A DNA stretch of 63,280 nt from Candidatus Poribacteria bacterium (lineage in GTDB: Bacteria; Poribacteria; WGA-4E; WGA-3G): contig JAJEBZ010000043.1 of assembly GCA_022822275.1 (NCBI GenBank), positions 1 to 63,280 of the forward strand, given 5' to 3'. A program made the position numbers and the translations under genes. Shown one piece after another: positions 2,977 through 37,067 of this stretch. Under the pieces are notes generated by a model. The model saw nothing but the letters and a program-made list of their open reading frames with translations. It searched no databases and had not been told where the DNA came from. Position 1 is the stretch's first letter; every line of letters starts with the position of its first letter.

Positions 2977-3489
2977 ATGACAGATCATAACACTTGGACA
3001 GCAGAGACGTTTCTCTACGATAAATTATTAACGGCACGAGCTCTAACTTCTGGTCGTAGAGGAAGCTCACCTATTGATGTCTATGATAGCTATCGGCAAA
3101 GAGATGTCGACATAGACACCTTATGCAATCTGGGGGCTGACATTATGACTATTGTTGAAGCATCCGGGTTAGAAGGTATTGAACCACACTTTCTGAAATG
3201 GTGCGTTTGGTGGCGTTTAAAAAATCAAAATCTCTTTGGTATACACATTACTTCAACAAAACCCCGATTGATGTTTGAGGGTTTATGGTGGGAATACTTA
3301 AGAGACGTTTGTTCAGAGTATGAGTTCACGCCTTATAGGCAATTTCAAGCAGAAGTCTGTCAACGGGATGTAACAGTGCAAGAGCTTGAGGGTGCTTTTA
3401 TAGACAAATTGTGCGATGTAGTATCTGAACAAGATGTCGATTTGGTTGATCACTTAAATAATCTTACAATCAATTGGGCAAAGCGGTAG
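2977..3489 (+). CDS. Hypothetical protein (170 aa, Trp-rich)
   Basis: An internal ATG at 2977 preceded by GAAAGGAAA avoids the overlap created by the 2866 start. No recognisable motif. Confidence 0.55.
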   Translation: MTDHNTWTAETFLYDKLLTARALTSGRRGSSPIDVYDSYRQRDVDIDTLCNLGADIMTIVEASGLEGIEPHFLKWCVWWRLKNQNLFGIHITSTKPRLMFEGLWWEYLRDVCSEYEFTPYRQFQAEVCQRDVTVQELEGAFIDKLCDVVSEQDVDLVDHLNNLTINWAKR

Positions 3490-3638: not shown

Positions 3639-6572
3639 ATGCAAAATTCTGACCCAGCATTAGAACAACTTATCACGAAAGAAATTGAGGGAGAAGTGCG
3701 CTTTGACGCATACTCAAAAGCACTATACAGCACGGATGCAAGCCTCTACCAAATAGAACCCATCGGTGTTGTTGTTCCCAAACACAAACAAGATGTCATC
3801 AAGACAATCCAGATCGCTGCTGAACACAAAATCCCTATACTGCCTCGCGGTGGCGGAACAAGTCTTGCAGGACAGTGTGTCGGCAAAGCAATTGTCATAG
3901 ACATGTCCAAATACATGAATCAGTTGATTGAAGTAAACGCAGCTGAACACTGGGCGCGCGTTGAACCGGGAATCGTTCTTGACGAATTAAATCATCAACT
4001 CAAACCACATGGACTCATGTATGCTCCCGATGTAGCGACCAGTAGTCGCGCAAACGTCGGCGGTACCATCGGCAATAACTCTGCGGGGTCACACTCTCTC
4101 ATATACGGCAAGACAATTGATCATGTGATGTCGTTAGACCTTGTTCTTGCAAACGGAGATGAAATCACTGCTGCCCCACTATCCTTCCCGGAAGTCGCAG
4201 CCAAAAAGGAAGGTAATACCTTAGAAGCACAAATCTATAGAGAACTCTGCAGAATTTGCGATGAGAATGCAGATGAAATTCGTAAACGTTATCCCCGAAT
4301 TTTACGTAGAGTCGCAGGTTATAACCTTGATGAATATGTCTCGGATGCCGGTTCAAAAGAGGTAACCCCCTACCGTCGTGACGGATGCGATGCCCACCGT
4401 CCTTTCAGTCTCTCGAAAATTGTTGTCGGGTCCGAAGGCACTTTAGCAACCACTGTTGAGGCGAAAGTTAATCTTGTTCCCATTCCCAAAATGACCTGTC
4501 TATGCGTTGTTCATTTTAAGTCGCTCATCGCTGCTATGGAGGCAATGCAACCCATCTTAGACTGCAAGCCAACCGCAGTAGAACTCATTGACAAAACAAT
4601 TCTGGGAATGGCACAAGGCTCTTTGGAATTCTCACGATTAACAAGCTTTATTCAAGGTGAACCGGAAGCACTGTTGGCAGTGGAATTTTACGGAGAAACC
4701 GAAACTGAACTACACGAACAAATTGATCATCTCGAAAAGACCTTGAAAAGAGCTGAATTCGGATATGCGTATGTGCGATGTTTTACTGCAGAAGAAAAAG
4801 CACGTGTCTGGGAAACACGAAAAGCGGGGCTCGGTTTATTGATGGGAATGAAAGGCGATGCAAAACCGATCGGCTTTGTGGAGGATGCTGCTGTCCCTAT
4901 AAAAAACTTACCTGAATACGTCCGCAGATTCGATGAAATCGTCACACGTCATGACACAACCGCCTCTTACTACGCACATGCAAGCGTTGGATTACTACAC
5001 AACAGACCCGTAATCAATCTCAAATCCGAATCAGATATCCAAAAAATGCATAACATCGCACGCGAGGTACGAGACCTACTTATGGACCTAAACGGTGCAA
5101 TGAGTGGAGAACATGGAGATGGACTTGTCCGAAGTGAATGGATTGAAAGCATGTTCGGTCCTAAGATTTACCAAGCACTCCGTGAAGTCAAAAACGCTTT
5201 TGATCCTGACGGAATTATGAACCCAGGCAAAATCATTGATCCCCCACCGATGACAGAAAACCTACGTTTCGGTGCAAAATACAATACCATCAAAATTGAT
5301 ACATACTTTGATTTCTCATCACAAGACGGTTTCGGCAGATCCATTGAAATGTGCAACGGTGTCGGTGCGTGCCGAAAAACATTGACAGGTACCATGTGTC
5401 CCTCCTTCATCGCAACACGCGAAGAGGAACACTCAACACGCGGGCGCGCAAACGCACTACGGCTGGTGATCTCCGGTGCTTTACCCCACACTGACTTAAC
5501 AAGTCAACGTCTATATGATGTCCTTGACTTGTGCCTCGGTTGCAAAGCATGCAAGGCAGAATGTCCCTCTAATGTTGACATGGCGAAAATAAAATACGAA
5601 GTGCTTGCACATTACCGAAAGGCAAACGGACTCCCGCTCCGAAATAGACTTTTTGGTGAAATCGGTTCACTTGCAGTTCTCGGCTCAACATTCGCGCCAG
5701 TCTCCAATTGGGCAACGAACAACCCACTTTCCAAGTGGATAGCAGAAAAACTGATGGGGATCGATCAACGCAGGGATATGCCTACCTTTGTCCATCAAAC
5801 CTTTGAAAAATGGTTCAGTAAACGAAAATCAACGCAAACTTCCGACAAAAAAGTTGTGCTATTTCACGACACCTTTATGAACTATAGTGAACCAGATATC
5901 GGCAAAGCAGCCACACACGTTTTAGAATCCGCAGGTTATGAAGTCATCCTACCAAAGAAAAAATGTTGTGGTAGACCGCTTATCTCTGAAGGTATGCTTG
6001 ACAGAGCGATAGAAAACGCTAACCATAATATTGAACAACTCCAAACTTACGTTGAAGCAGGAATACCAATTGTAGGATGTGAACCGAGTTGCACCTCCGC
6101 TTTGACCGATGATTATGTTGATCTTATTGGAACAGCAAGAGCAAAACGCGTTGCTGAGTCTACATACGCGCTTGAGGAGTTTCTACTTCATGAGCATGAA
6201 AAAGGCGAACTCACACTCACTTATGAAACAGAACCACGCGATATTCTATTGCACGGACACTGCCACCAGCGAGCACTGTCAGGCATCAACCCAGTATTGA
6301 ATATGCTTGAATTACCAAAAGCACACAATGTCACTGTCATCGATTCCAGTTGCTGCGGTATGGCGGGCTCATTCGGTTATGAAAAGTCACACTACGATAT
6401 CTCTATGAATATTGGTGAACTACGACTTTTCCCACACATCCGAGAAAAAACAGGAGAATATACACTGACAGCGTCAGGTTTCTCCTGCAGACATCAAATA
6501 GAACACGGAACCGGTATCTTACCAAAGCACCCAATTGAAGTACTAAGTGAAGCAATTAAAACCAATATATAA
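3639..6572 (+). CDS. FAD-linked oxidase fused to 4Fe-4S/CCG domains (YdiJ / GlcD-GlcF-fusion type 2-hydroxyacid dehydrogenase)
   Basis: N-terminal FAD-binding PCMH pattern (PRGGGTSLAGQ), central FAD-oxidase C domain, ferredoxin-type Cys clusters (CxxCxxCxxxCP, e.g. CLGCKACKAECP) and two C-terminal CCG motifs (KKCCGRP, SCCGMAG). Confidence 0.85.
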   Translation: MQNSDPALEQLITKEIEGEVRFDAYSKALYSTDASLYQIEPIGVVVPKHKQDVIKTIQIAAEHKIPILPRGGGTSLAGQCVGKAIVIDMSKYMNQLIEVNAAEHWARVEPGIVLDELNHQLKPHGLMYAPDVATSSRANVGGTIGNNSAGSHSLIYGKTIDHVMSLDLVLANGDEITAAPLSFPEVAAKKEGNTLEAQIYRELCRICDENADEIRKRYPRILRRVAGYNLDEYVSDAGSKEVTPYRRDGCDAHRPFSLSKIVVGSEGTLATTVEAKVNLVPIPKMTCLCVVHFKSLIAAMEAMQPILDCKPTAVELIDKTILGMAQGSLEFSRLTSFIQGEPEALLAVEFYGETETELHEQIDHLEKTLKRAEFGYAYVRCFTAEEKARVWETRKAGLGLLMGMKGDAKPIGFVEDAAVPIKNLPEYVRRFDEIVTRHDTTASYYAHASVGLLHNRPVINLKSESDIQKMHNIAREVRDLLMDLNGAMSGEHGDGLVRSEWIESMFGPKIYQALREVKNAFDPDGIMNPGKIIDPPPMTENLRFGAKYNTIKIDTYFDFSSQDGFGRSIEMCNGVGACRKTLTGTMCPSFIATREEEHSTRGRANALRLVISGALPHTDLTSQRLYDVLDLCLGCKACKAECPSNVDMAKIKYEVLAHYRKANGLPLRNRLFGEIGSLAVLGSTFAPVSNWATNNPLSKWIAEKLMGIDQRRDMPTFVHQTFEKWFSKRKSTQTSDKKVVLFHDTFMNYSEPDIGKAATHVLESAGYEVILPKKKCCGRPLISEGMLDRAIENANHNIEQLQTYVEAGIPIVGCEPSCTSALTDDYVDLIGTARAKRVAESTYALEEFLLHEHEKGELTLTYETEPRDILLHGHCHQRALSGINPVLNMLELPKAHNVTVIDSSCCGMAGSFGYEKSHYDISMNIGELRLFPHIREKTGEYTLTASGFSCRHQIEHGTGILPKHPIEVLSEAIKTNI

Positions 6573-6605: not shown

Positions 6606-8045
6606 ATGGCAAAAATATTTGAACCACTTGACGACTTTAAAACTGTTGACTTACCCGAAAAACAGCTACCATTTTGGAAAATAGCTGGCCCAGGTGCTAT
6701 CTTAGTTGGCTTATCTATTGGGGCAGGGGAAATTGTAATATGGCCCCGAATCGCCTCACAATACGGCGGTAGTATGGTCTGGGCAGCTGTCCTCGGTGTT
6801 TTTCTACAACTCTGGATCAACTTTGAAGTCGGCAGATGGACAATAGCAACTGGCGAAACAGTCTACACTGGTTATAGCCGTATTTGGCGTGGTTTTGCAC
6901 CACTGTTTATCTTGCTCACCGTTGTGGGGTGGATCGCCCCCGGTTGGGCACGCGCATCCGGCCTCGCACTCAAAGCACTCCTCATTGGACCTAATGGTTG
7001 GGGTTCAGATACTTTCTGGACAGTCGTTACATTCGCAGCTGTCGCTCTAATTCTATTCGGTCCAAAAATGGTTTACAAATCTGTAGAAAACACGGTAGAA
7101 CTGCTGGTCGCAATTGTTACAATCGGACTGATCCTGGTCGTCATCGCTGTAGGTTCGCTTGATACATGGAAAGAATTGGGAGCTGGTCTAATAAACGTTG
7201 GACATGTAGCAGAAGGAATGAATATCAAGGACCTTTTTATTGCAGTGGTTTTCGCTGGGGCAGGAGGCACTGCAAACCTATTTTATACTTTCTACCTTCG
7301 AGACAAAGATATCGGTATGGGCGCGCGTTTGCCGTCACTCTTAAATCCCCTACGAGGACGAGACGAAACCGTACCTTCAACAGGATACCTATTTGAAGAA
7401 ACCGAAGAAAACAAACATCGATTCGCTGCATGGTGGAAGTATATAAAACAGGACCAAATGCTATTCTTTTGGGCACTCAATACCATCACCATGATGCTAT
7501 TCATTTTTGGAGCTCTCGCTGTTTTACACCCAAAAGGTATTGTACCACAAGCAGGACAACTCATCTATGACGAAGCAAATATACTAAAAGACATCTGGGG
7601 AATGCCAGGGCAATATATCTTTTTACTCGTCGGTGTGGCAACGCTTTTTGGAACACAACTCGCACTCGTTGACGGTGTCGGAAGGTCCATATCTGATATA
7701 ATCTATACCAACTTTAAGGGGGCAAAAAAACGCACTCTAAGCTGGTGGTATCTGCTTGTAATAGGTATATGGATCGTCGCTGGATGTGTGATAACTTTTG
7801 TGATGGAACAGTTAAACGTAAGCGAGCTCGGATTCCTTTTCAGCGCAGCATATATGGGGGGTTTTGCTATGGCAATTTATGTCCCACTTACGTTATATAT
7901 GAATAGACGTTATTTACCAAGTTTCGCCAAACCCAAAAAAATATCAACAACAATGATGTTGATCGCTTCGGCTGTATATATTGGCTTCGCTATTTCAAGT
8001 ATTGTATGGGAAATTAACCGACTCACTGGAGGAATAAATGGATAA
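6606..8045 (+). CDS. Nramp-superfamily-like polytopic membrane transporter, substrate unknown
   Basis: About 11-12 hydrophobic segments. GPGAILVGLSIGAGEIVIWPRIASQYG..LWINFEVGRWTIATGET resembles Nramp-related transporters but lacks the canonical DPGN motif. Confidence 0.55.
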   Translation: MAKIFEPLDDFKTVDLPEKQLPFWKIAGPGAILVGLSIGAGEIVIWPRIASQYGGSMVWAAVLGVFLQLWINFEVGRWTIATGETVYTGYSRIWRGFAPLFILLTVVGWIAPGWARASGLALKALLIGPNGWGSDTFWTVVTFAAVALILFGPKMVYKSVENTVELLVAIVTIGLILVVIAVGSLDTWKELGAGLINVGHVAEGMNIKDLFIAVVFAGAGGTANLFYTFYLRDKDIGMGARLPSLLNPLRGRDETVPSTGYLFEETEENKHRFAAWWKYIKQDQMLFFWALNTITMMLFIFGALAVLHPKGIVPQAGQLIYDEANILKDIWGMPGQYIFLLVGVATLFGTQLALVDGVGRSISDIIYTNFKGAKKRTLSWWYLLVIGIWIVAGCVITFVMEQLNVSELGFLFSAAYMGGFAMAIYVPLTLYMNRRYLPSFAKPKKISTTMMLIASAVYIGFAISSIVWEINRLTGGING

Positions 8046-8859
8046 GAACTCACAAAAAAACTTTTTTGAGAAAGAAGGTTATCTCGTTGTCGAAAATTTA
8101 TTGTCACCTGCAGAGGTAGAGGAATGCCAAGCAGAGATTCAACTACTACATGAGTTTGCCGCAGGGCAAGAATCGGAAGCAGAAAAGGAACGCGCTGATG
8201 TCGCACGCAGGCACGTACAACGTGAACCTTTCGCACAAGACGAAACACAAGGTGACAAATTACCTGTACTGCGAAAAGCAGAAAATACGCGCCAATACTC
8301 AGATGTGTTTAAGAATTTGGCACAACACCCAAACCTTATCGCAGTCCTTCAAAACCTTATCGGAGAAGACCTGATCCTCTTCAGAAGCACATTGATGTTC
8401 AAACCCGCTTACCACGGCTCATCACACGGACTACACCAAGATTCAGCATATTGGCCAATGGAACCACCGAGATTAGTAACCGTCAGTATTGCCCTCAACG
8501 ATGCTAACATAGATAACGGTTGTTTCAAAGTTGTACCGCGTAGTCACTTATGGGGTGTACAAGAGTGGGGTGGAATCGCACGACAACAAGATGCCGAACT
8601 CACCGATCGAAAGGATGTTGCAAAGCAGCAGATGGACGTACCACTTTCGGCAGGCAGCGCGTTGTTCTTCCACAGCCTAATGGTGCACGGTTCCGGCCCA
8701 AACGCTTCACCCCGACCGAGAAACACCGCACTTTACGCATATTTTTCACCAGAAGTCAGGTATGTTACCAAAGACGGTAGAGGTGAGCGCACATTCCCTG
8801 TCGTAGCAGGCCTCGACGGAAAAACCGAAATCACTTTTACTGCACAGAAAGCATCATAG
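8038..8859 (+). CDS. Phytanoyl-CoA dioxygenase (PhyH) family Fe(II)/2OG oxygenase
   Basis: FFEKEGYLVVENLL start, HQD metal motif (GLHQDSAYWP), VPRSH and distal HGSGPN. The ATG overlaps the upstream stop by 8 nt. Confidence 0.8.
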   Translation: MDKNSQKNFFEKEGYLVVENLLSPAEVEECQAEIQLLHEFAAGQESEAEKERADVARRHVQREPFAQDETQGDKLPVLRKAENTRQYSDVFKNLAQHPNLIAVLQNLIGEDLILFRSTLMFKPAYHGSSHGLHQDSAYWPMEPPRLVTVSIALNDANIDNGCFKVVPRSHLWGVQEWGGIARQQDAELTDRKDVAKQQMDVPLSAGSALFFHSLMVHGSGPNASPRPRNTALYAYFSPEVRYVTKDGRGERTFPVVAGLDGKTEITFTAQKAS

Positions 8860-18965: not shown

Positions 18966-20714
18966 TTGAGTATTGTTGTTCACGTCACGCACGAAGCCAT
19001 CCAAAAAATGGGGGGTATCGGAGCAGTATTGGAAGGGTTGCTAACAACACACAGCTACAACGAAGGGGTGGAGCGTACCTTTCTCGTCGGTCCGCTTTTT
19101 TCTGGTGCCGATTTAAAAGCGTTGGATTCAGTGTTGTATCACGCAGCAGAAGGTATTCGAACAACACCACACGCTGAGGCACTGAGTGATATTGAAAAGA
19201 CTTACCATGTGGAAATTGTCTATGGACAAAGACGGTTTGAAAGTAAGGACCCCCAGATTACTATACTTGCAGATGTTCTGTTGATCAATGTTTCTAATAG
19301 CAATGTAGAGTTGGCGGGGCAGTTCAAGTGGCTGCTCTATGAACATTTTGGCATTGAATCAAGTCGTTACGAGAGTCAATGGGAATTTGAGGAATATGTA
19401 CGTCTTGCAGAACCCGCTTATGGTGCGCTACGGGTACTCATCGGTGAAGAAACTAAATCCCCAGTGTATATTATATCACATGAGTTTATGGGGATGCCGC
19501 TTGCACTCAAAACGCAGATTGAACGGAAGAACGGAAACGGCGCAGCAAACATGCGTACTATCTTTTATGCTCATGAAGTGGCAACGATACGACCCATCGT
19601 TGAAGGACATCCCGGTCATGATGTGCGTTTTTATAATGCGTTAAATCGGGCAAAAACAGAGGGAATGTTGATCCGAGATGTGTTCGGTGATCCGTTCTGG
19701 TATTATAAACACGCGTTGATTGACAAAGCACACCTCTGTGATACGATCTTTGCTGTCGGCGATCTCGTTGTGGATGAACTCCGTTTTCTGGCACAACCGT
19801 TTGAGTCGTATCCTATCAATCTTGTCTACAACGGAATTCCTGCGTTTAAGATGAGTATAGAGGATAAGTTAGCGTCAAAAGCGCGTCTTCAAAAGTATGC
19901 GAGAACACTTCTTGACTATCGTCCCGATTATGTTTTCACGCATGTTACACGGCTTGTCAAAAGTAAAGGATTGTGGCGTGATCTTCAAGTACTGACGCAT
20001 TTGGATTCCCTGCTTGCATCCAATGACAAAACTGCTGTGCTATTTATACTCTCAACAGAAATTGCTACCGGTCGACCACACGAGGACATCCGTGAAATGG
20101 AACGCGAATATGGTTGGCCTGTCCATCATAAAATCGGTTATCCTGATTTGGTCGGTGCTGAGATTGAATTGAATAACGGCATCTCTGCTTTTAATCTGCA
20201 GTCTAAAGCTATTAAGGTTGTTTTTGTCAATCAATTTGGTTGGGATCAAGCGTCTTGTGGCACGCGAATGCCTATTGATATGGAGTTTATGGACATCCGT
20301 AAGGGGAGTGATGCAGAATTTGGACAGTCAATTTATGAACCTTTCGGAATTGCACAAGTGGAACCGCTCAGTTTTGGTGCGATCTGTGTTGTTAGCAATG
20401 TCTGTGGTTGTTGTGGTTTCATTCAACGTGCTACAGACAACAACGAGGTACCAAATGTCGTTATCGCTGACTATACTCACCTGAATTCAGCTCCGAAGTC
20501 GTTAGAAGATGTCTTGAACATCGGTTTGGCGGAACGAACGCAGATTGAAGTTGAAAATAGCCGTGACATCGCAGCGAAACTGCTGGGGCGTTTACCACGA
20601 AAACAACGTGACGTTGAGGATATGATTAAAGAAGGCTATGAGATTGCCTCCCGTATGAGTTGGGAGGTCGTTGTGAAGGATTATTTCTTGCCCGGATTGA
20701 AACAGACATTATAA
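18966..20714 (+). CDS. Glycosyltransferase, glycogen-synthase (GT3)-like
   Basis: TTG start. N-terminus VHVTHEAIQKMGGIGAVLEGLLT resembles the E-V-x-N-K-V-GGI-x-T-V motif of GT3 glycogen synthases. Family assignment is tentative. Confidence 0.5.
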   Translation: MSIVVHVTHEAIQKMGGIGAVLEGLLTTHSYNEGVERTFLVGPLFSGADLKALDSVLYHAAEGIRTTPHAEALSDIEKTYHVEIVYGQRRFESKDPQITILADVLLINVSNSNVELAGQFKWLLYEHFGIESSRYESQWEFEEYVRLAEPAYGALRVLIGEETKSPVYIISHEFMGMPLALKTQIERKNGNGAANMRTIFYAHEVATIRPIVEGHPGHDVRFYNALNRAKTEGMLIRDVFGDPFWYYKHALIDKAHLCDTIFAVGDLVVDELRFLAQPFESYPINLVYNGIPAFKMSIEDKLASKARLQKYARTLLDYRPDYVFTHVTRLVKSKGLWRDLQVLTHLDSLLASNDKTAVLFILSTEIATGRPHEDIREMEREYGWPVHHKIGYPDLVGAEIELNNGISAFNLQSKAIKVVFVNQFGWDQASCGTRMPIDMEFMDIRKGSDAEFGQSIYEPFGIAQVEPLSFGAICVVSNVCGCCGFIQRATDNNEVPNVVIADYTHLNSAPKSLEDVLNIGLAERTQIEVENSRDIAAKLLGRLPRKQRDVEDMIKEGYEIASRMSWEVVVKDYFLPGLKQTL

Positions 20715-20751: not shown

Positions 20752-21612
20752 ATGAAAAAAGTACGTGATTCTAATGATCCAATGCCACTGGCTCCAGATG
20801 AGAAATTGATGACACCTGAACAAAAGTTCTTCTTTGATCTTCGAGGTTGGATTTTATTACCATCAGTATTATCAGTTTCTGAAATAGAAGATATGAAAGC
20901 GGAAGTGTACGCAGGTGCAAAACACTGTTATCAAGGCGCACTCCAGAATTTACTTGACCATCCTGCTATTGTAGGGATTCTAAACGAAATCCTTGCTGAT
21001 GAACGATTTATCTTTGACGATTGCTACGGCTTTCGGTGTGAGAATTCGATCACAACGGTCAGGAAGCCTGGCTGGACTACCTATTCTGATAGAGGCACTG
21101 CCGTACCACATGTCGTGCGACCTCCGCAACAAGCAAATGCAATGCGGTATCAGGTGGCAGGTGGAAAGATATTTGCAGGACTCACACGTGTGATTTGGGA
21201 ACTTGAAGAGGTGAAAGCTGGACAGGGTGGGACTACTTTTCTAAGTGGGTCTCATAAGGCACATTTCAACTATGGCGGACCGGATCCAAACCGTCCGAAT
21301 ATTAGTGAATCTCCTTGGGAGGATAAAATAAAGGGCATGATGGAGGACTATAGTTGTCCCCCTGGGTCAGTACTTATTTTTACTGAGAGTGTTATACATG
21401 CTACCAACAACTGGACGAACCCCGACAATCCGCGTTGTGCTGTGTTTAATTGTTACAACTCAATCTGGGCTCAATGGTTTCGCTTGAATCTAAGTCATGA
21501 AATAATAGAAAAGATGCCAGAAAAACGCCAATCCTTATTCCGTGGAACTTGGGCAATCGGTGGGGGGCCTGGTGGAAACCGTCAGTATTCATTGGATAAT
21601 ACGACCAAATAA
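20752..21612 (+). CDS. PhyH-like dioxygenase-fold protein, tandem paralog 1
   Basis: EQKFFFDLRGWILLP, LSGSHKAHF, FTESVIHATNNW. The position aligned to HxD reads HVV. Confidence 0.6.
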   Translation: MKKVRDSNDPMPLAPDEKLMTPEQKFFFDLRGWILLPSVLSVSEIEDMKAEVYAGAKHCYQGALQNLLDHPAIVGILNEILADERFIFDDCYGFRCENSITTVRKPGWTTYSDRGTAVPHVVRPPQQANAMRYQVAGGKIFAGLTRVIWELEEVKAGQGGTTFLSGSHKAHFNYGGPDPNRPNISESPWEDKIKGMMEDYSCPPGSVLIFTESVIHATNNWTNPDNPRCAVFNCYNSIWAQWFRLNLSHEIIEKMPEKRQSLFRGTWAIGGGPGGNRQYSLDNTTK

Positions 21613-33934: not shown

Positions 33935-34198
33935 TTATCCAACGGCTACAGCATATTCGGTTAACGCAGGTTGTCTCTTTTTCGCGCGTTTGGCAATCTC
34001 GACGAGCTCCCTGACAGTCACAATTAATGCGTCTACCGTTTCTGGCGTGAAGGAGGGTTCTCCATCTTCGGGGCAGACCCATGCCCAAACATTCTGTACC
34101 TTGACAGATACGCCATCTTCACTATATTCAAATACTGTCTGCTGCCACACTTTTTCTGTGTTGTGTTCAGTGCAGATTGGAGGTGGTTTGGATGTCAT
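33935..34198 (-). CDS. Small hypothetical protein, MqsA/YgiT-like zinc-ribbon topology with degenerate ligands
   Basis: C-x2-H ... CPEDGE spacing resembles the MqsA N-terminal ribbon. Weak. Confidence 0.3.
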   Translation of the reverse strand: MTSKPPPICTEHNTEKVWQQTVFEYSEDGVSVKVQNVWAWVCPEDGEPSFTPETVDALIVTVRELVEIAKRAKKRQPALTEYAVAVG

Positions 34199-34268: not shown

Positions 34269-35210
34269 TTACCGATTAGCCAAGCGTTCCACATGTGCCA
34301 CAACAGATTCGGAGATACCCTCTAAACTATACCCACCCTCTAACGCAGATACAACATTGCCAGAAGCAATCTCATCCGCAACATCAAGTACCAAATCCGT
34401 CAGAATTGAAAATCCATCTGCAGTTAGATTGATCTGTGCAAGTGGATCAAGGTAATGTGCATCAAATCCTGCGGAGATAAGAATAAATTCTGGTGAATAA
34501 TCCTGTAATGCAGGTATCAGCACATCTTCAAAAATTGTTATATATTCGTCATCACCAATGTCTGATGACATCTGTACGTTGAGTGTTGTCCCGGGTGCCT
34601 TCACACTGCCCCGTTCATAGTTTGAACCAGTTCCCGGGTAGAGTGGATATTGATGAATAGAAAAGAAGAAAACCGTTTCATCATCGTAAAAAATGTCTTG
34701 CGTGCCGTTGCCGTGGTGTACATCCCAATCCACTATTGCGACCTTTCCAACACCGTGTTCTCTTTGAAGATAACGGGCTGCAATTGCGATGTTATTAAAC
34801 AAGCAAAACCCCATACTATGACCGGGCGTCGCGTGGTGTCCGGGTGGACGCACCATCGCAAAAGCATTTTTCGCTTTCTTAGTAACTACTGCATCGGCAG
34901 CACACAGGACACCACCTGTTGAAAGCAGGGCAATATCATAAGAAGCATGCCCAACCGGGGTATCATGAGTCAGTGGAACTTCTGCTTCACAAAATTGGCG
35001 TATGTGTTCGCTATATCCCTGATGATGTGCATAAGCAATCTGTTCAACACTTGCGGGAGTAGGGTCAAGGTGAATCAGTTGCTCCCAAACATCGCTTTGT
35101 TGGAGTGCAGCAAGACTTGCTCTGAGTCGGTCAGGTCGCTCAGGATGTTCCGGACCAGTGTCGTGTTTCAGGTAGTCTGGGTGATAGATGAACGCTGTTT
35201 TTTGTGGCAT
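34269..35210 (-). CDS. Histone deacetylase family (AcuC/HDAC-like) amidohydrolase
   Basis: RPPGHHA, and the IVDWDVHHGNGTQ signature. Confidence 0.9.
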   Translation of the reverse strand: MPQKTAFIYHPDYLKHDTGPEHPERPDRLRASLAALQQSDVWEQLIHLDPTPASVEQIAYAHHQGYSEHIRQFCEAEVPLTHDTPVGHASYDIALLSTGGVLCAADAVVTKKAKNAFAMVRPPGHHATPGHSMGFCLFNNIAIAARYLQREHGVGKVAIVDWDVHHGNGTQDIFYDDETVFFFSIHQYPLYPGTGSNYERGSVKAPGTTLNVQMSSDIGDDEYITIFEDVLIPALQDYSPEFILISAGFDAHYLDPLAQINLTADGFSILTDLVLDVADEIASGNVVSALEGGYSLEGISESVVAHVERLANR

Positions 35211-35245
35211 GATGTTGGGAATTTTTAAACTAACTTTATCATAAA

Positions 35246-35578
35246 CTATTGAGCGTTACATGCTGTTTTATTTACCGCACGCAGGTCAACTTCTTTACGC
35301 AAGCGTGAATTTACGTCGTTGTCTCGATGGACACAGATACAATTAACACCGTAACTGTTTACACAATACCACTTTTCGTGGTTTGGTATTCTCTCCTTCA
35401 GCGAATCAGTTTGACCAATGTATAGAAATGTGTGTGTGGCCCTCCCGTCCGGGTCTTCATCACGTTTAGAGAAAATATAAACTGCACCGACAGAATTGAA
35501 TATTGTATCCGTAGAGAAAACTTCAAAGGCATAAGTTCCAAATTTGCCTTCAAATGTCGCATCAGATATTTTTCCCAT
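35246..35578 (-). CDS. GIY-YIG-like nuclease domain protein
   Basis: GAVYIF ... FLYIGQTDSLKERIPNHEKW resembles GIY..YIG..R..H/E..N, but with a long spacer. Confidence 0.5.
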   Translation of the reverse strand: MGKISDATFEGKFGTYAFEVFSTDTIFNSVGAVYIFSKRDEDPDGRATHTFLYIGQTDSLKERIPNHEKWYCVNSYGVNCICVHRDNDVNSRLRKEVDLRAVNKTACNAQ

Positions 35579-35708
35579 GTTCCTATACCCTAATTTTGAT
35601 GTTAGAAACTATTCCAATTAAGTATAAAATCATTATACTAAGACAACATTGTAACACATCTAAAACTGATATTCAAGAGGGACTGACAATGTTCTCACAA
35701 TATATTGA

Positions 35709-36071
35709 TTATATGGTAGCAGTAGAATTTACAGACCATTCAAATTCCCAAGTTTGTGAGGCAATAGCAAAAGGTTCGTACTGGCGTATTACCTTGTCAT
35801 GGTTAATACCTAAGGGATTTTCTTCTCTTTTAATTCCTTCCTCTAAGTGTTCAGAAGTAAGTAAAGAAGGCTTAGGTTGAGGAATTACATCTCCATGCTG
35901 TTTTGCGGTTTCTATCCAGCATAAGATGGCATCCCTTCCATTTGCAATCGCTTCGTCAATTGTGTCACCATCTGATATACAACCTGGCAAGTCAGGAAAT
36001 TCAATCAGATAACCTCCTCCTTCTTCTGTAGTTAATATATTTATTTTAGGTGGGTATCCTATTTCATTCAT
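35709..36071 (-). CDS. hicB: HicB family antitoxin
   Basis: GGGYLIEFPDLPGCISDGDTIDEAIANGRDAILCWIETAKQHGDVIPQP. Confidence 0.8.
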   Translation of the reverse strand: MNEIGYPPKINILTTEEGGGYLIEFPDLPGCISDGDTIDEAIANGRDAILCWIETAKQHGDVIPQPKPSLLTSEHLEEGIKREENPLGINHDKVIRQYEPFAIASQTWEFEWSVNSTATI

Positions 36072-36348
36072 GATTTTCCTCCAACTGATCGATCATTGTA
36101 ACAAGTTTTCGAATATATACCGGTTTTATTGGTCGGTGATCAGGAATAGTCAATTTAGTGCCTGAATCGTGTCGTAGTGTGACATGACTGCTTCCACGTT
36201 TTGGACGGTTTATTGATAAACCATATCGCCTCGCAAGTGTTTCAACATCTCTCATCCGCCAATCATTGCGCGGATTCTGTCTCATTCGATCCAATAATTT
36301 ATCTCGGCGCATAGAAATAAATCTCCACACAACATCAATTTCTTGCAC
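36064..36348 (-). CDS. hicA: HicA family mRNA interferase toxin
   Basis: RRYGLSINRPKRGSSHVTLRHDSGTKLTIPDHRPIKPVYIRKL. Overlaps hicB by 8 nt. The likely start is the internal MRRDKL at 36312. Confidence 0.7.
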   Translation of the reverse strand: MQEIDVVWRFISMRRDKLLDRMRQNPRNDWRMRDVETLARRYGLSINRPKRGSSHVTLRHDSGTKLTIPDHRPIKPVYIRKLVTMIDQLEENHE

Positions 36349-36474
36349 CGTTGTCGTGTTGGTAATTCAGTTTAATTCCTTCTTAAATCAATTTATTAAT
36401 GAAGACGATGTTAAAATCGTACCATGTTCAAATGTAATTGTCAACTTAGATTTGTTTATACACACACGATAATC

Positions 36475-36750
36475 TCAACCCCGCATACGTCTAACCCGTG
36501 CGGGGGTGTCATCCCCGAATATCAGACGAAAGAATACAAAGATATGTTCACTATAACCGGAGTTATGTGCATAAGCAATCTGTTCAACACTTGCGGGAGT
36601 AGGGTCAAGGCGAATCAGTTGCTCCCAAACATCGCTTTGTTGGAGTGCAGCAAGACTTGCTCTGAGTCGGTCAGGTCGCTCAGGATGTTCCGGACCAGCA
36701 TCGTGTTTCAGGTAGTCTGGATGATAGATGAACGCGGTTTTTTGTGGCAT
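36475..36750 (-). pseudogene. Duplicated 5' fragment of the HDAC-family gene (codons 1 to ~70)
   Basis: MPQKTAFIYHPDYLKHDAGPEHPERPDRLRASLAALQQSDVWEQLIRLDPTPASVEQIAYAH is nearly identical to the N-terminus of 34269-35210, then diverges and stops. Confidence 0.8.
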
Positions 36751-37030
36751 GTTTTCTTTCTTCGTTGTCTGTAGATTAAGATGCTGTCATTTTATCCAAA
36801 TTCCATTTTGTTTTCAAATACTTTTTGGTTTTCAGAATCATAAGAATTTAAGAAACACTCTTATGAGAGGGGTTTTTAACCCAGACTTGTAGTTTCAGCA
36901 CAAGATAATCCTGTCCATCTGGAAATCCTGAAATCCTGGTTCAGACAATTAACTAAGATACTACGAATATACCAAGTTGATAACCCGTGAAATCTGTGTA
37001 ATCCGCGATTCAGACAAGTTCTGAAAAACC

Positions 37031-37059
37031 TTGCCAAAAGCACGATAAACTGTTAATAT
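37031..37059 (+). promoter_or_regulatory. Predicted promoter of the methyltransferase gene; would give a near-leaderless mRNA
   Basis: TTGCCA, a 17 nt spacer, then TAATAT, ending 8 nt before the ATG at 37068. No Shine-Dalgarno sequence is visible. Confidence 0.45.
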
Positions 37060-37067
37060 CTAATCCA

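Follow-up and report, generated by a model that had tools for sequence, protein, structure and literature searches.

The window, the whole stretch of 63,280 nt analysed here, comprises positions 1-63,280 of the forward strand of contig JAJEBZ010000043.1 (assembly GCA_022822275.1) and belongs to the 320-contig draft genome of Candidatus Poribacteria bacterium, an uncultured sponge symbiont; this genome is referred to as G000. The genes of the locus from the intact HDAC to its dead copy are all on the minus strand. They begin with an intact HDAC-family gene encoding 313 amino acids (aa) at 34269-35210 (Pfam Hist_deacetyl, E = 1.2e-95), which is nearest to that of genome G016 (84.8% nucleotide identity). 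Upstream of it, in the same orientation, lie a gene for a GIY-YIG-fold protein, a predicted hicA-hicB pair, the 3' end of an oxidoreductase gene and a second, dead copy of the HDAC 5' end. Nucleotides of HDAC are numbered from its ATG, and window coordinates are used otherwise. The locus was compared across 40 species representatives of the genus of G000. In what follows, G codes denote genomes of the genus and L codes contigs or loci (L015 stands for G020, L017 for G017, L021 for G023 and L068 for G051), and Q denotes the gene for a Gfo/Idh/MocA oxidoreductase.

Direct repeats of HDAC nt 1-213 were located at 34998-35210 (proximal copy) and 36538-36750 (distal copy). A repeat search returned 35002-35211 against 36542-36751, 210 nt with 94% identity at a spacing of 1540. 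By alignment and per-site counts, nt 1-186 (35025-35210 in the proximal and 36565-36750 in the distal copy) were identical at 181 of 186 positions, with five mismatches at nt 15, 30, 51, 52 and 140, and nt 187-213 (36538-36564 in the distal copy) at only 15 of 27. The alignment of both copies showed no similarity beyond nt 213, and 5' of the ATG a single base matched, so that the repeat ends at the ATG. This is the structure that had been described in the original prediction, namely direct repeats with five mismatches, a weaker stretch behind them and an end at the start codon. A chance origin is impossible for a repeat of such length and identity. Open reading frames (ORFs) and Pfam matches agree with the earlier assignment of the distal copy to a dead fragment (36475-36750) and of the proximal copy to the start of the intact gene. 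The fragment ORF of 91 aa terminates at the stop codon of Q itself, since HDAC nt 213 is fused to the last ~63 nt of Q including its stop codon (36475-36537) by an illegitimate junction with non-homologous partner DNA. This Q remnant is colinear with the Q 3' ends of genomes with the type III arrangement described below. It contains a hairpin at 36479-36505, which was considered as an attC-like or terminator element and rejected as such, as it is the coding 3' end of the oxidoreductase gene. Upstream of the dead fragment, 36751-37067 is the native intergenic region between HDAC and a divergent Eco57I-like methyltransferase gene, homologous to the HDAC upstream regions of G016 and G049. With a promoter-like site at 36817-36789 (a consensus match only), this native region would now drive the dead fragment alone.

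Between the Q remnant and the intact gene, the intergenic region 36349-36474, conserved in G053, G050 and G024, contains a promoter-like site for hicA (TTGACA-17-TACGAT, 36444-36416). The hicA toxin gene follows at 36064-36312/36348 (Pfam HicA_toxin, E = 1.4e-6, 28.7 bits with a cut-off of 27). It probably begins at the ATG at 36312, giving the 82-aa form also called in L084 and L094; the longest ORF starts at a GTG at 36348 (94 aa). The hicB antitoxin gene at 35709-36071 (Pfam HicB_lk_antitox, E = 2e-13, 50.9 bits with a cut-off of 27) overlaps hicA by 8 nt. Both domains score above their cut-offs in adjacent, overlapping genes, and these are predicted to form a HicAB type II toxin-antitoxin pair with the orientation of HDAC, as had been proposed. 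A promoter scan placed a further promoter-like site at 35676-35648, 5' of the GIY-YIG gene (35246-35578). The latter is separated from the HDAC start codon by a 35-nt spacer (35211-35245) that is identical in L084 and homologous to the sequence upstream of HDAC in G019; this spacer arrived together with the cassette. According to Pfam, no recombinase is encoded among the ORFs of the 1.33-kb insert (only hicA, hicB and the GIY-YIG gene) or in the neighbouring methyltransferase and HDAC genes.

The product of the GIY-YIG gene, 110 aa in length, matched Pfam GIY-YIG only below the cut-off (E = 0.042, 14.6 bits; cut-off 22.6 bits), and a PDB sequence search with the family profile yielded no significant match. 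Its AlphaFold2 model had a mean confidence (pLDDT) of 94.1, and the top two Foldseek matches were the UvrC GIY-YIG domains 1yd6 and 1yd5 (probability 1.0, TM-score 0.52-0.64). In the family alignment, Y34, Y53, G55, H67, E96 and N108 were invariant and R63 was conserved in at least 90%, and the length of 110 aa is kept tightly over several phyla. Fold and motif residues thus bear out the earlier label "GIY-YIG-like" although the Pfam score is below threshold, and the model points to a minimal single-domain GIY-YIG-fold protein without a DNA-binding domain.

Four alternative arrangements adjoin the HDAC start codon among the 40 genomes surveyed. In type I, found in basal lineages and in G016 and G049, HDAC is divergent from a methyltransferase gene and a radical-SAM gene behind it, with the intergenic region in between. 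In type II, Q directly precedes HDAC in the same direction. In type III the order is Q, hicA, hicB, GIY-YIG gene and HDAC, all codirectional; it occurs in G053, G050, G045 and G019, on the metagenome contigs L086 and L087 and, decayed, in G024. In type IV, an ATPase/HEPN-like island is located between Q and HDAC. G000 is a composite of a type I left part and a type III right part. The region upstream of its dead copy is homologous to that upstream of the single-copy HDAC in G016 and G049, and the intact copy is preceded by the 3' flank of the GIY-YIG gene, in common with G019. The order between the fragment's end and the intact HDAC is colinear with type III (Q end, intergenic region, hicA, hicB, GIY-YIG gene, 35-nt spacer); for G053, G050 and G024, colinearity covers the Q remnant, the intergenic region and hicA.

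The Q remnant was identical to the Q ends of the crown clade at 50-54 of 60 positions, compared to 36 of 45 for the Q gene of G000 itself, which resides on another contig (C260) beside a sulfatase gene. Likewise, nt 187-213 of the dead copy were identical to the fragments of L084, L094 and L092 at 25 of 27 positions and display crown-type codon choices, a foreign, unconverted tail, and the same stretch of the intact gene is of the type common to G000, G016 and G049. Because both the Q remnant and this tail are crown-type and not G000's own, the cassette is foreign and was imported from a type III lineage. The insertion is thus real, as originally supposed; it took place beside or within the start of the HDAC coding region and left the gene intact. 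Empty sites, which had been suggested as a check, were found in the nearest relatives G016 and G049, where the methyltransferase gene, the intergenic region and a single HDAC follow one another. Recombination between the repeats would lead back to this form.

The junction of HDAC nt 213 with the Q 3' end also occurs in the ENA metagenome assemblies L084, L094 and L092 and on two Logan contigs, L085 and L093, the carriers outside G000 including two further lineages. These were found via the fragment ORF in a protein collection; an exact search for the junction sequence in genome and metagenome contigs gave 0 matches. L085, with 98% identity to window 36607-35162, covers both junction and cassette; L093 contains the complete unit, starting in GmrSD genes upstream and reaching into the intact HDAC. 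In the crown-type L092, Q is followed by two GmrSD genes, the fragment, the Q end, a truncated hicB, the spacer and HDAC; hicA and the GIY-YIG gene are deleted, and the spacer is retained.

Comparison of G000 with L084 revealed that the cassette has been exchanged between lineages. From nt 163 of the fragment to nt 17 of the full copy (35194-36588, the block lately exchanged between G000 and L084/L094), the sequences were 98.4% identical (23 differences in 1395 nt), with sharp borders on both sides. The corresponding values were 88.9% for nt 1-162 of the fragment, 89.4% for HDAC nt 18-942, 89% for ubiE, 83% for pheT and 78% for the methyltransferase gene. An identity of 98.4% in the cassette as against ~89% in its flanks indicates that the cassette moved together with the junction after the lineages had diverged. 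Between G000 and L092, the cassette identity was 74-77%, about the genome baseline of 72-78%, indicating that the HDAC/Q junction itself is old.

The repeats themselves evolve in concert. Over nt 1-162, the two copies within one genome were identical at 157 (G000), 156 (L084), 159 (L094) and 142 (L092) of 162 positions, as opposed to 120-147 of 162 for orthologous copies of different lineages. At 12 sites the copies of G000 and L084 covary, both copies carrying one state per genome. In a maximum-likelihood tree of nt 1-162 of fragments and full copies, fragment and full copy of the same genome were paired in G000 (support 96/81) and G020 (84/77), and one clade (98/98) united both fragments and both full copies of L084 and L094. 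The L092 fragment and full copy also fell into one clade (97/90), with the single-copy G044 beside the fragment. This clustering of paralogs by genome points to gene conversion as the homogenising process. L084 and L094 are 99.4% identical over 2.7 kb with 15 differences, five of which cluster in a 43-nt stretch of the fragment; at four of these L094 has the state of its full copy, apparently the signature of gene conversion. Another five of the 15 differences are located within ~100 nt at the 3' end of the GIY-YIG gene (L084 6240-6343), which may be a small recombination patch.

The edges of the copies behave differently. Nt 163-186 and the tail were identical or nearly so in all fragments, but not the same as in the L084 and L092 full copies. 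Conversion thus spares the final ~24 nt ahead of the heterology and the initial ~17 nt behind the ATG, as is to be expected if it requires a minimal length of flanking homology. What travels with the cassette is limited to nt 163/187-213 of the dead copy and, in the intact copy, no more than 17 nt; in nt 18-162 both copies carry the substitutions of the host lineage in G000, L084/L094, L092 and G020. The dead copy of G000 is of host-lineage type over nt 1-186. These substitutions, in all four lineages, do not support the proposal that the insertion had brought its own replacement 5' end for the intact copy. The five mismatches, which had been taken as a sign of different histories of the two copies, do not reflect a separate origin either. 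Those at nt 30, 51, 52 and 140 are private to the dead copy of G000, and that at nt 15 coincides with a difference in L084/L094, within the 5' edge that escapes conversion. A separate history is limited to the 27-51-nt tail of the dead copy, and the near-identity of the repeat copies says little about the age of the duplication.

Similar scars of independent origin were found at the same locus in other genomes of the genus. The single-contig genome G020 contains two tandem units, each consisting of 210 bp of a methyltransferase 5' end, an island and 218 bp of the HDAC 5' end (L015 2506-2715 and 6946-7154 for the methyltransferase repeats, 6718-6935 and 8233-8450 for those of HDAC). The cargo differs between the units, a 4-kb ATPase/HEPN-like island in one and hicAB in the other, and the junction links HDAC nt 216 to methyltransferase nt ~195 with an AAT microhomology. 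In G017, the final ~50-70 nt of Q recur in degenerate form ~75-25 nt before the HDAC ATG, so that hicA-hicB is flanked by a duplicated Q end, another insertion-duplication at this locus. G023 has a mirror-image 3' scar: a dead HDAC 3' fragment (nt 550-942, at L021 7902-8292) with three stop codons is found 1.8 kb downstream of the intact HDAC, past an inserted antisense gene for a 536-aa ATPase. As a separate observation, a second, truncated HDAC copy (aa 1-149) follows a type IV island in G051 (L068 8001-8450), 70 kb from the intact gene; it ends beside an ORF that, judged by eye, may encode an IS630-like DDE transposase.

We conclude that the locus is probably a recombination scar, an insertion-duplication that arose by illegitimate joining and homologous recombination at a hypervariable island hot spot, where the conserved first ~200 nt of HDAC would serve as a homologous anchor for swapping gene sets among species. 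In a first step, a type III piece that began ~63 nt ahead of the Q stop codon and ended at HDAC nt 213 would have been joined head-to-tail once, by circularisation or tandem duplication, which would have created the illegitimate junction of HDAC nt 213 with Q nt -63. In a second step, the permuted or circular piece would have integrated by homologous recombination within the HDAC 5' end of a type I genome. This would result in the order native promoter, dead HDAC (1-213), Q remnant, hicAB, GIY-YIG gene and intact HDAC. Thereafter, the structure would have persisted and been passed between lineages by homologous recombination. Gene conversion would have evened out the repeats except for ~17-24 nt at each homology edge and the diverged tail. 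The cassette would have decayed in some lineages, and recombination between the repeats would restore the single-copy form of G016 and G049. The sequences establish the anatomy of the locus, the provenance of each piece, the empty sites, the recurrence of the junction in independent assemblies, the grouping of paralogs by genome and the recent cassette exchange; we infer the order of events, a circular rather than a tandem intermediate and gene conversion as the homogenising process. The GIY-YIG gene and hicAB are cargo, not insertion machinery. It is speculative that hicAB slows the loss of the structure by addiction; L092 keeps the scar after the loss of hicA.

Four points weigh against this interpretation. 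Independent junctions at HDAC nt 213 (window 36538) and nt 216 (L015 ~6934) have a chance of roughly 1%. The exchanged block has its borders (nt ~17 and ~163) very near the homology edges, which would also fit a unit with fixed ends. All single-step recombination models predict a donor-type 5' end in the intact copy, which was not seen. Finally, neither an excised circle nor a filled/empty polymorphism inside one population was observed. As to the first point, a conservation trough at HDAC nt ~215-245 is shallow and at best a partial reason for the coincidence; a drop in conservation was therefore rejected as its full explanation. The partner sequences at the two junctions both read roughly RTATTCYTTT..TCG. 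The position of the block borders is also consistent with conversion limited by a minimal homology length. The host-type 5' end of the intact copy renders a simple circle with one crossover insufficient as the whole story and calls for a second process, either gene conversion or ends-in/gap repair from the recipient.

The closest alternative, which we regard as unlikely, is a tandem duplication with vertical descent. Here, the segment from Q (-63) to HDAC (213) would have been duplicated in a type III ancestor and the left cargo later overwritten through homologous recombination by other islands, with the dead fragment as right-hand anchor. The replacements would be the methyltransferase gene and intergenic region in G000 and L084 and the two GmrSD genes in L092, and neither a circular intermediate nor de novo integration would be required. 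L092 retains a full Q to the left of island and fragment, as predicted for a replaced first unit, G020 has exactly the topology of two tandem units, and the baseline-level divergence of the cassette between G000 and L092 makes the junction old, as this scenario would have it. However, HDAC, ubiE and the methyltransferase gene of G000 belong to the type I clade, as opposed to the crown-type cassette and Q remnant, and at least one inter-clade transfer is needed anyway. Moreover, the outcome predicted in sequence is the same as that of the circle/ends-in model.

Very unlikely, in our view, is a discrete mobile cassette (tail, Q end, hicAB and GIY-YIG gene) that targets the HDAC 5' end site-specifically, with the GIY-YIG protein perhaps acting as a free-standing homing endonuclease or as part of an mORF-type element, and that either brings a replacement 5' end or makes a long host-derived target duplication. 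Such a unit would account for the sharp block borders that recur at nt ~17 and ~163 in L084, L094 and L092, for two junctions only 3 nt apart, and for a GIY-YIG gene always within 35-50 nt of the HDAC ATG. However, nuclease gene and duplication are not associated across genomes. The orthologous gene is located 35-50 nt 5' of HDAC in G050, G045, G019 and G053 with the duplication absent (within 1.5 kb), and G020 and L092 have the duplication without the GIY-YIG gene, which in L092 is deleted. This distribution indicates that the GIY-YIG gene is a passenger at the HDAC locus and does not support a role for it in the insertion. At ~25 paralogous loci, no copy of the 5' end of the downstream gene was present upstream of the GIY-YIG gene; the few short repeats present at such loci (L039, L051, L100) were taken no further. 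A co-conversion signal was also lacking, as the HDAC 5' ends of GIY-YIG-bearing genomes do not cluster in the tree. In addition, a 110-aa protein without a DNA-binding domain and a "hairpin" that is the coding 3' end of a housekeeping-type gene fit such a cassette poorly, and patchy conversion between near-identical strains accounts for the homogenised repeats. In total, the idea of GIY-YIG homing or a selfish cassette was supported by 0 of ~30 family-member contexts checked and was rejected.

The GIY-YIG paralogs that were inspected stand first in modules of two genes, together with one for an ATPase or a small membrane protein, and in other phyla the gene occurs in islands with ParDE or PIN genes. 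Among relatives within the genus (L027-L029, L037-L043), the paralogs head conserved two-gene modules. For paralogs with ~60-68% identity the second gene is ATPase-like (MAILEGFRVRNYGVL...), and for those with ~40% it encodes a ~165-aa protein beginning MKS.IRRFWR. These may be small defence modules, with a weak match to PADLOC PDC-S14.

The coincidence of nt 213 and nt 216 and the block borders at the homology edges leave a small probability for a unit with defined ends. In its most specific form, this would be a discrete self-propagating cassette, composed of the HDAC-like tail, the Q-end hairpin, hicAB, the GIY-YIG gene and the spacer, that is specific for the HDAC 5' end and duplicates ~150-190 bp of host sequence, for example through staggered nicks by the GIY-YIG protein near nt 17 and nt 163-213; we consider it highly improbable. 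An assembly artefact, with two strain variants of the locus fused into a chimera in the metagenome bin, might be suspected in a 320-contig draft with a locus polymorphic among relatives, but it can virtually be dismissed since the same junction and order occur in independent assemblies (three from ENA, two Logan contigs), an analogous structure is present in the single-contig G020, the copies differ by substitutions, and HDAC nt 213 and the Q end have no k-mer in common that could cause a false join.

A genome-wide scan of G000 returned 116 local direct repeats; the two inspected, on C153 and C209, were both of other kinds than the HDAC scar. The genome is rich in interspersed short repeats, including one region of the window (~36900-37020), with 50,816 non-self megablast hits. 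On C153, a 228-bp interspersed repeat with 99.6% identity is located on either side of a sulfatase gene (3211-3438 and 5164-5391). C209 contains tandem paralogs of 240 and 255 aa whose 205-bp 5' ends (19261-19465 and 21344-21548) are 96.6% identical and encode the same N-terminal transmembrane segment; the remainders have diverged, which may be due to gene conversion or module swapping. Downstream of HDAC in the window, an 87-aa ORF (33935-34198) has a weak, below-cut-off match to MqsA/YgiT zinc-finger antitoxins. In L084 and L094, a DUF4258 gene, possibly that of a toxin partner, lies directly 5' of its homologue; it is absent in G000.

With regard to known systems, the HDAC locus resembles Campbell-type insertion-duplication by single-crossover or ends-in recombination, in which an insert is placed between direct repeats of the target homology, the gene remains intact and the structure can collapse to the empty site. 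In the alternative-pairing model of transformation-induced merodiploidy, duplication of the recipient's own sequence is expected if the arms of the donor are paired in a permuted order (Johnston et al. 2013, PMC3784515). In contrast to these cases, the HDAC scar is natural, old and between species; its duplication spans only ~200 bp, and its repeats are maintained by gene conversion across species-level divergence. Transformation, moreover, is hypothetical for Poribacteria.

A second parallel is provided by the Rhs, CDI (contact-dependent growth inhibition) and type VI secretion system (T6SS) displacement arrays with their orphan CdiA-CT or Rhs-CT modules. Kirchberger et al. (2017, PMC5361080) account for T6SS effector-immunity arrays by homology-facilitated illegitimate recombination, and "C-terminal displacement" in Rhs proteins is attributed there to Jackson et al. 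(2009). As at the HDAC locus, a conserved part of a gene is the anchor, the displaced fragment keeps the conserved piece, and homologous and illegitimate recombination act with no integrase involved. However, at the HDAC locus the 5' and not the 3' end is displaced, the variable cargo is outside the gene and the displaced fragment has no evident function. Its product is a metabolic or regulatory deacetylase of the Hist_deacetyl family and not a toxin; the locus was therefore not assigned to these arrays, and the resemblance is one of mechanism only.

Integrase islands that restore the tRNA or protein gene they enter (attL/attR) share with the locus the gene-end repeats bracketing foreign DNA, the intact target and the empty sites. 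The HDAC locus, by contrast, lacks an integrase and its repeats do not form an identical att core; the end of the intact copy is host-type and the junction partner is a remnant of a chromosomal gene. The analogy with gene-restoring islands drawn in the original prediction is thus not supported, as no recombinase was found and the intact copy is not element-type. Free-standing GIY-YIG homing endonucleases such as the Seg proteins of T4, and mORF-type gene-end replacement as in Allomyces atp6, resemble the locus in that a small GIY-YIG gene adjoins a conserved gene and a dead partial copy is close by. They differ from the HDAC locus in that here nuclease and duplication occur apart from one another across genomes, co-conversion left no signal, the protein has no DNA-binding domain and hicAB is located between the dead copy and the nuclease gene.

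Taken together, the feature is real and makes an instructive case of a recombination scar of a known kind, neither an integrase island nor a homing-endonuclease element; it reveals no new mechanism and no new kind of mobile element. For annotators, it illustrates that a cassette bracketed by repeats and adjoining a nuclease gene is not necessarily a mobile element. For the biology of these sponge symbionts, it provides a natural example of how small defence and toxin-antitoxin cargo may cross species without a dedicated mobility gene, with the conserved start of a gene as anchor, a dead fragment arising from an illegitimate junction, and conversion keeping that fragment near-identical to the live gene.

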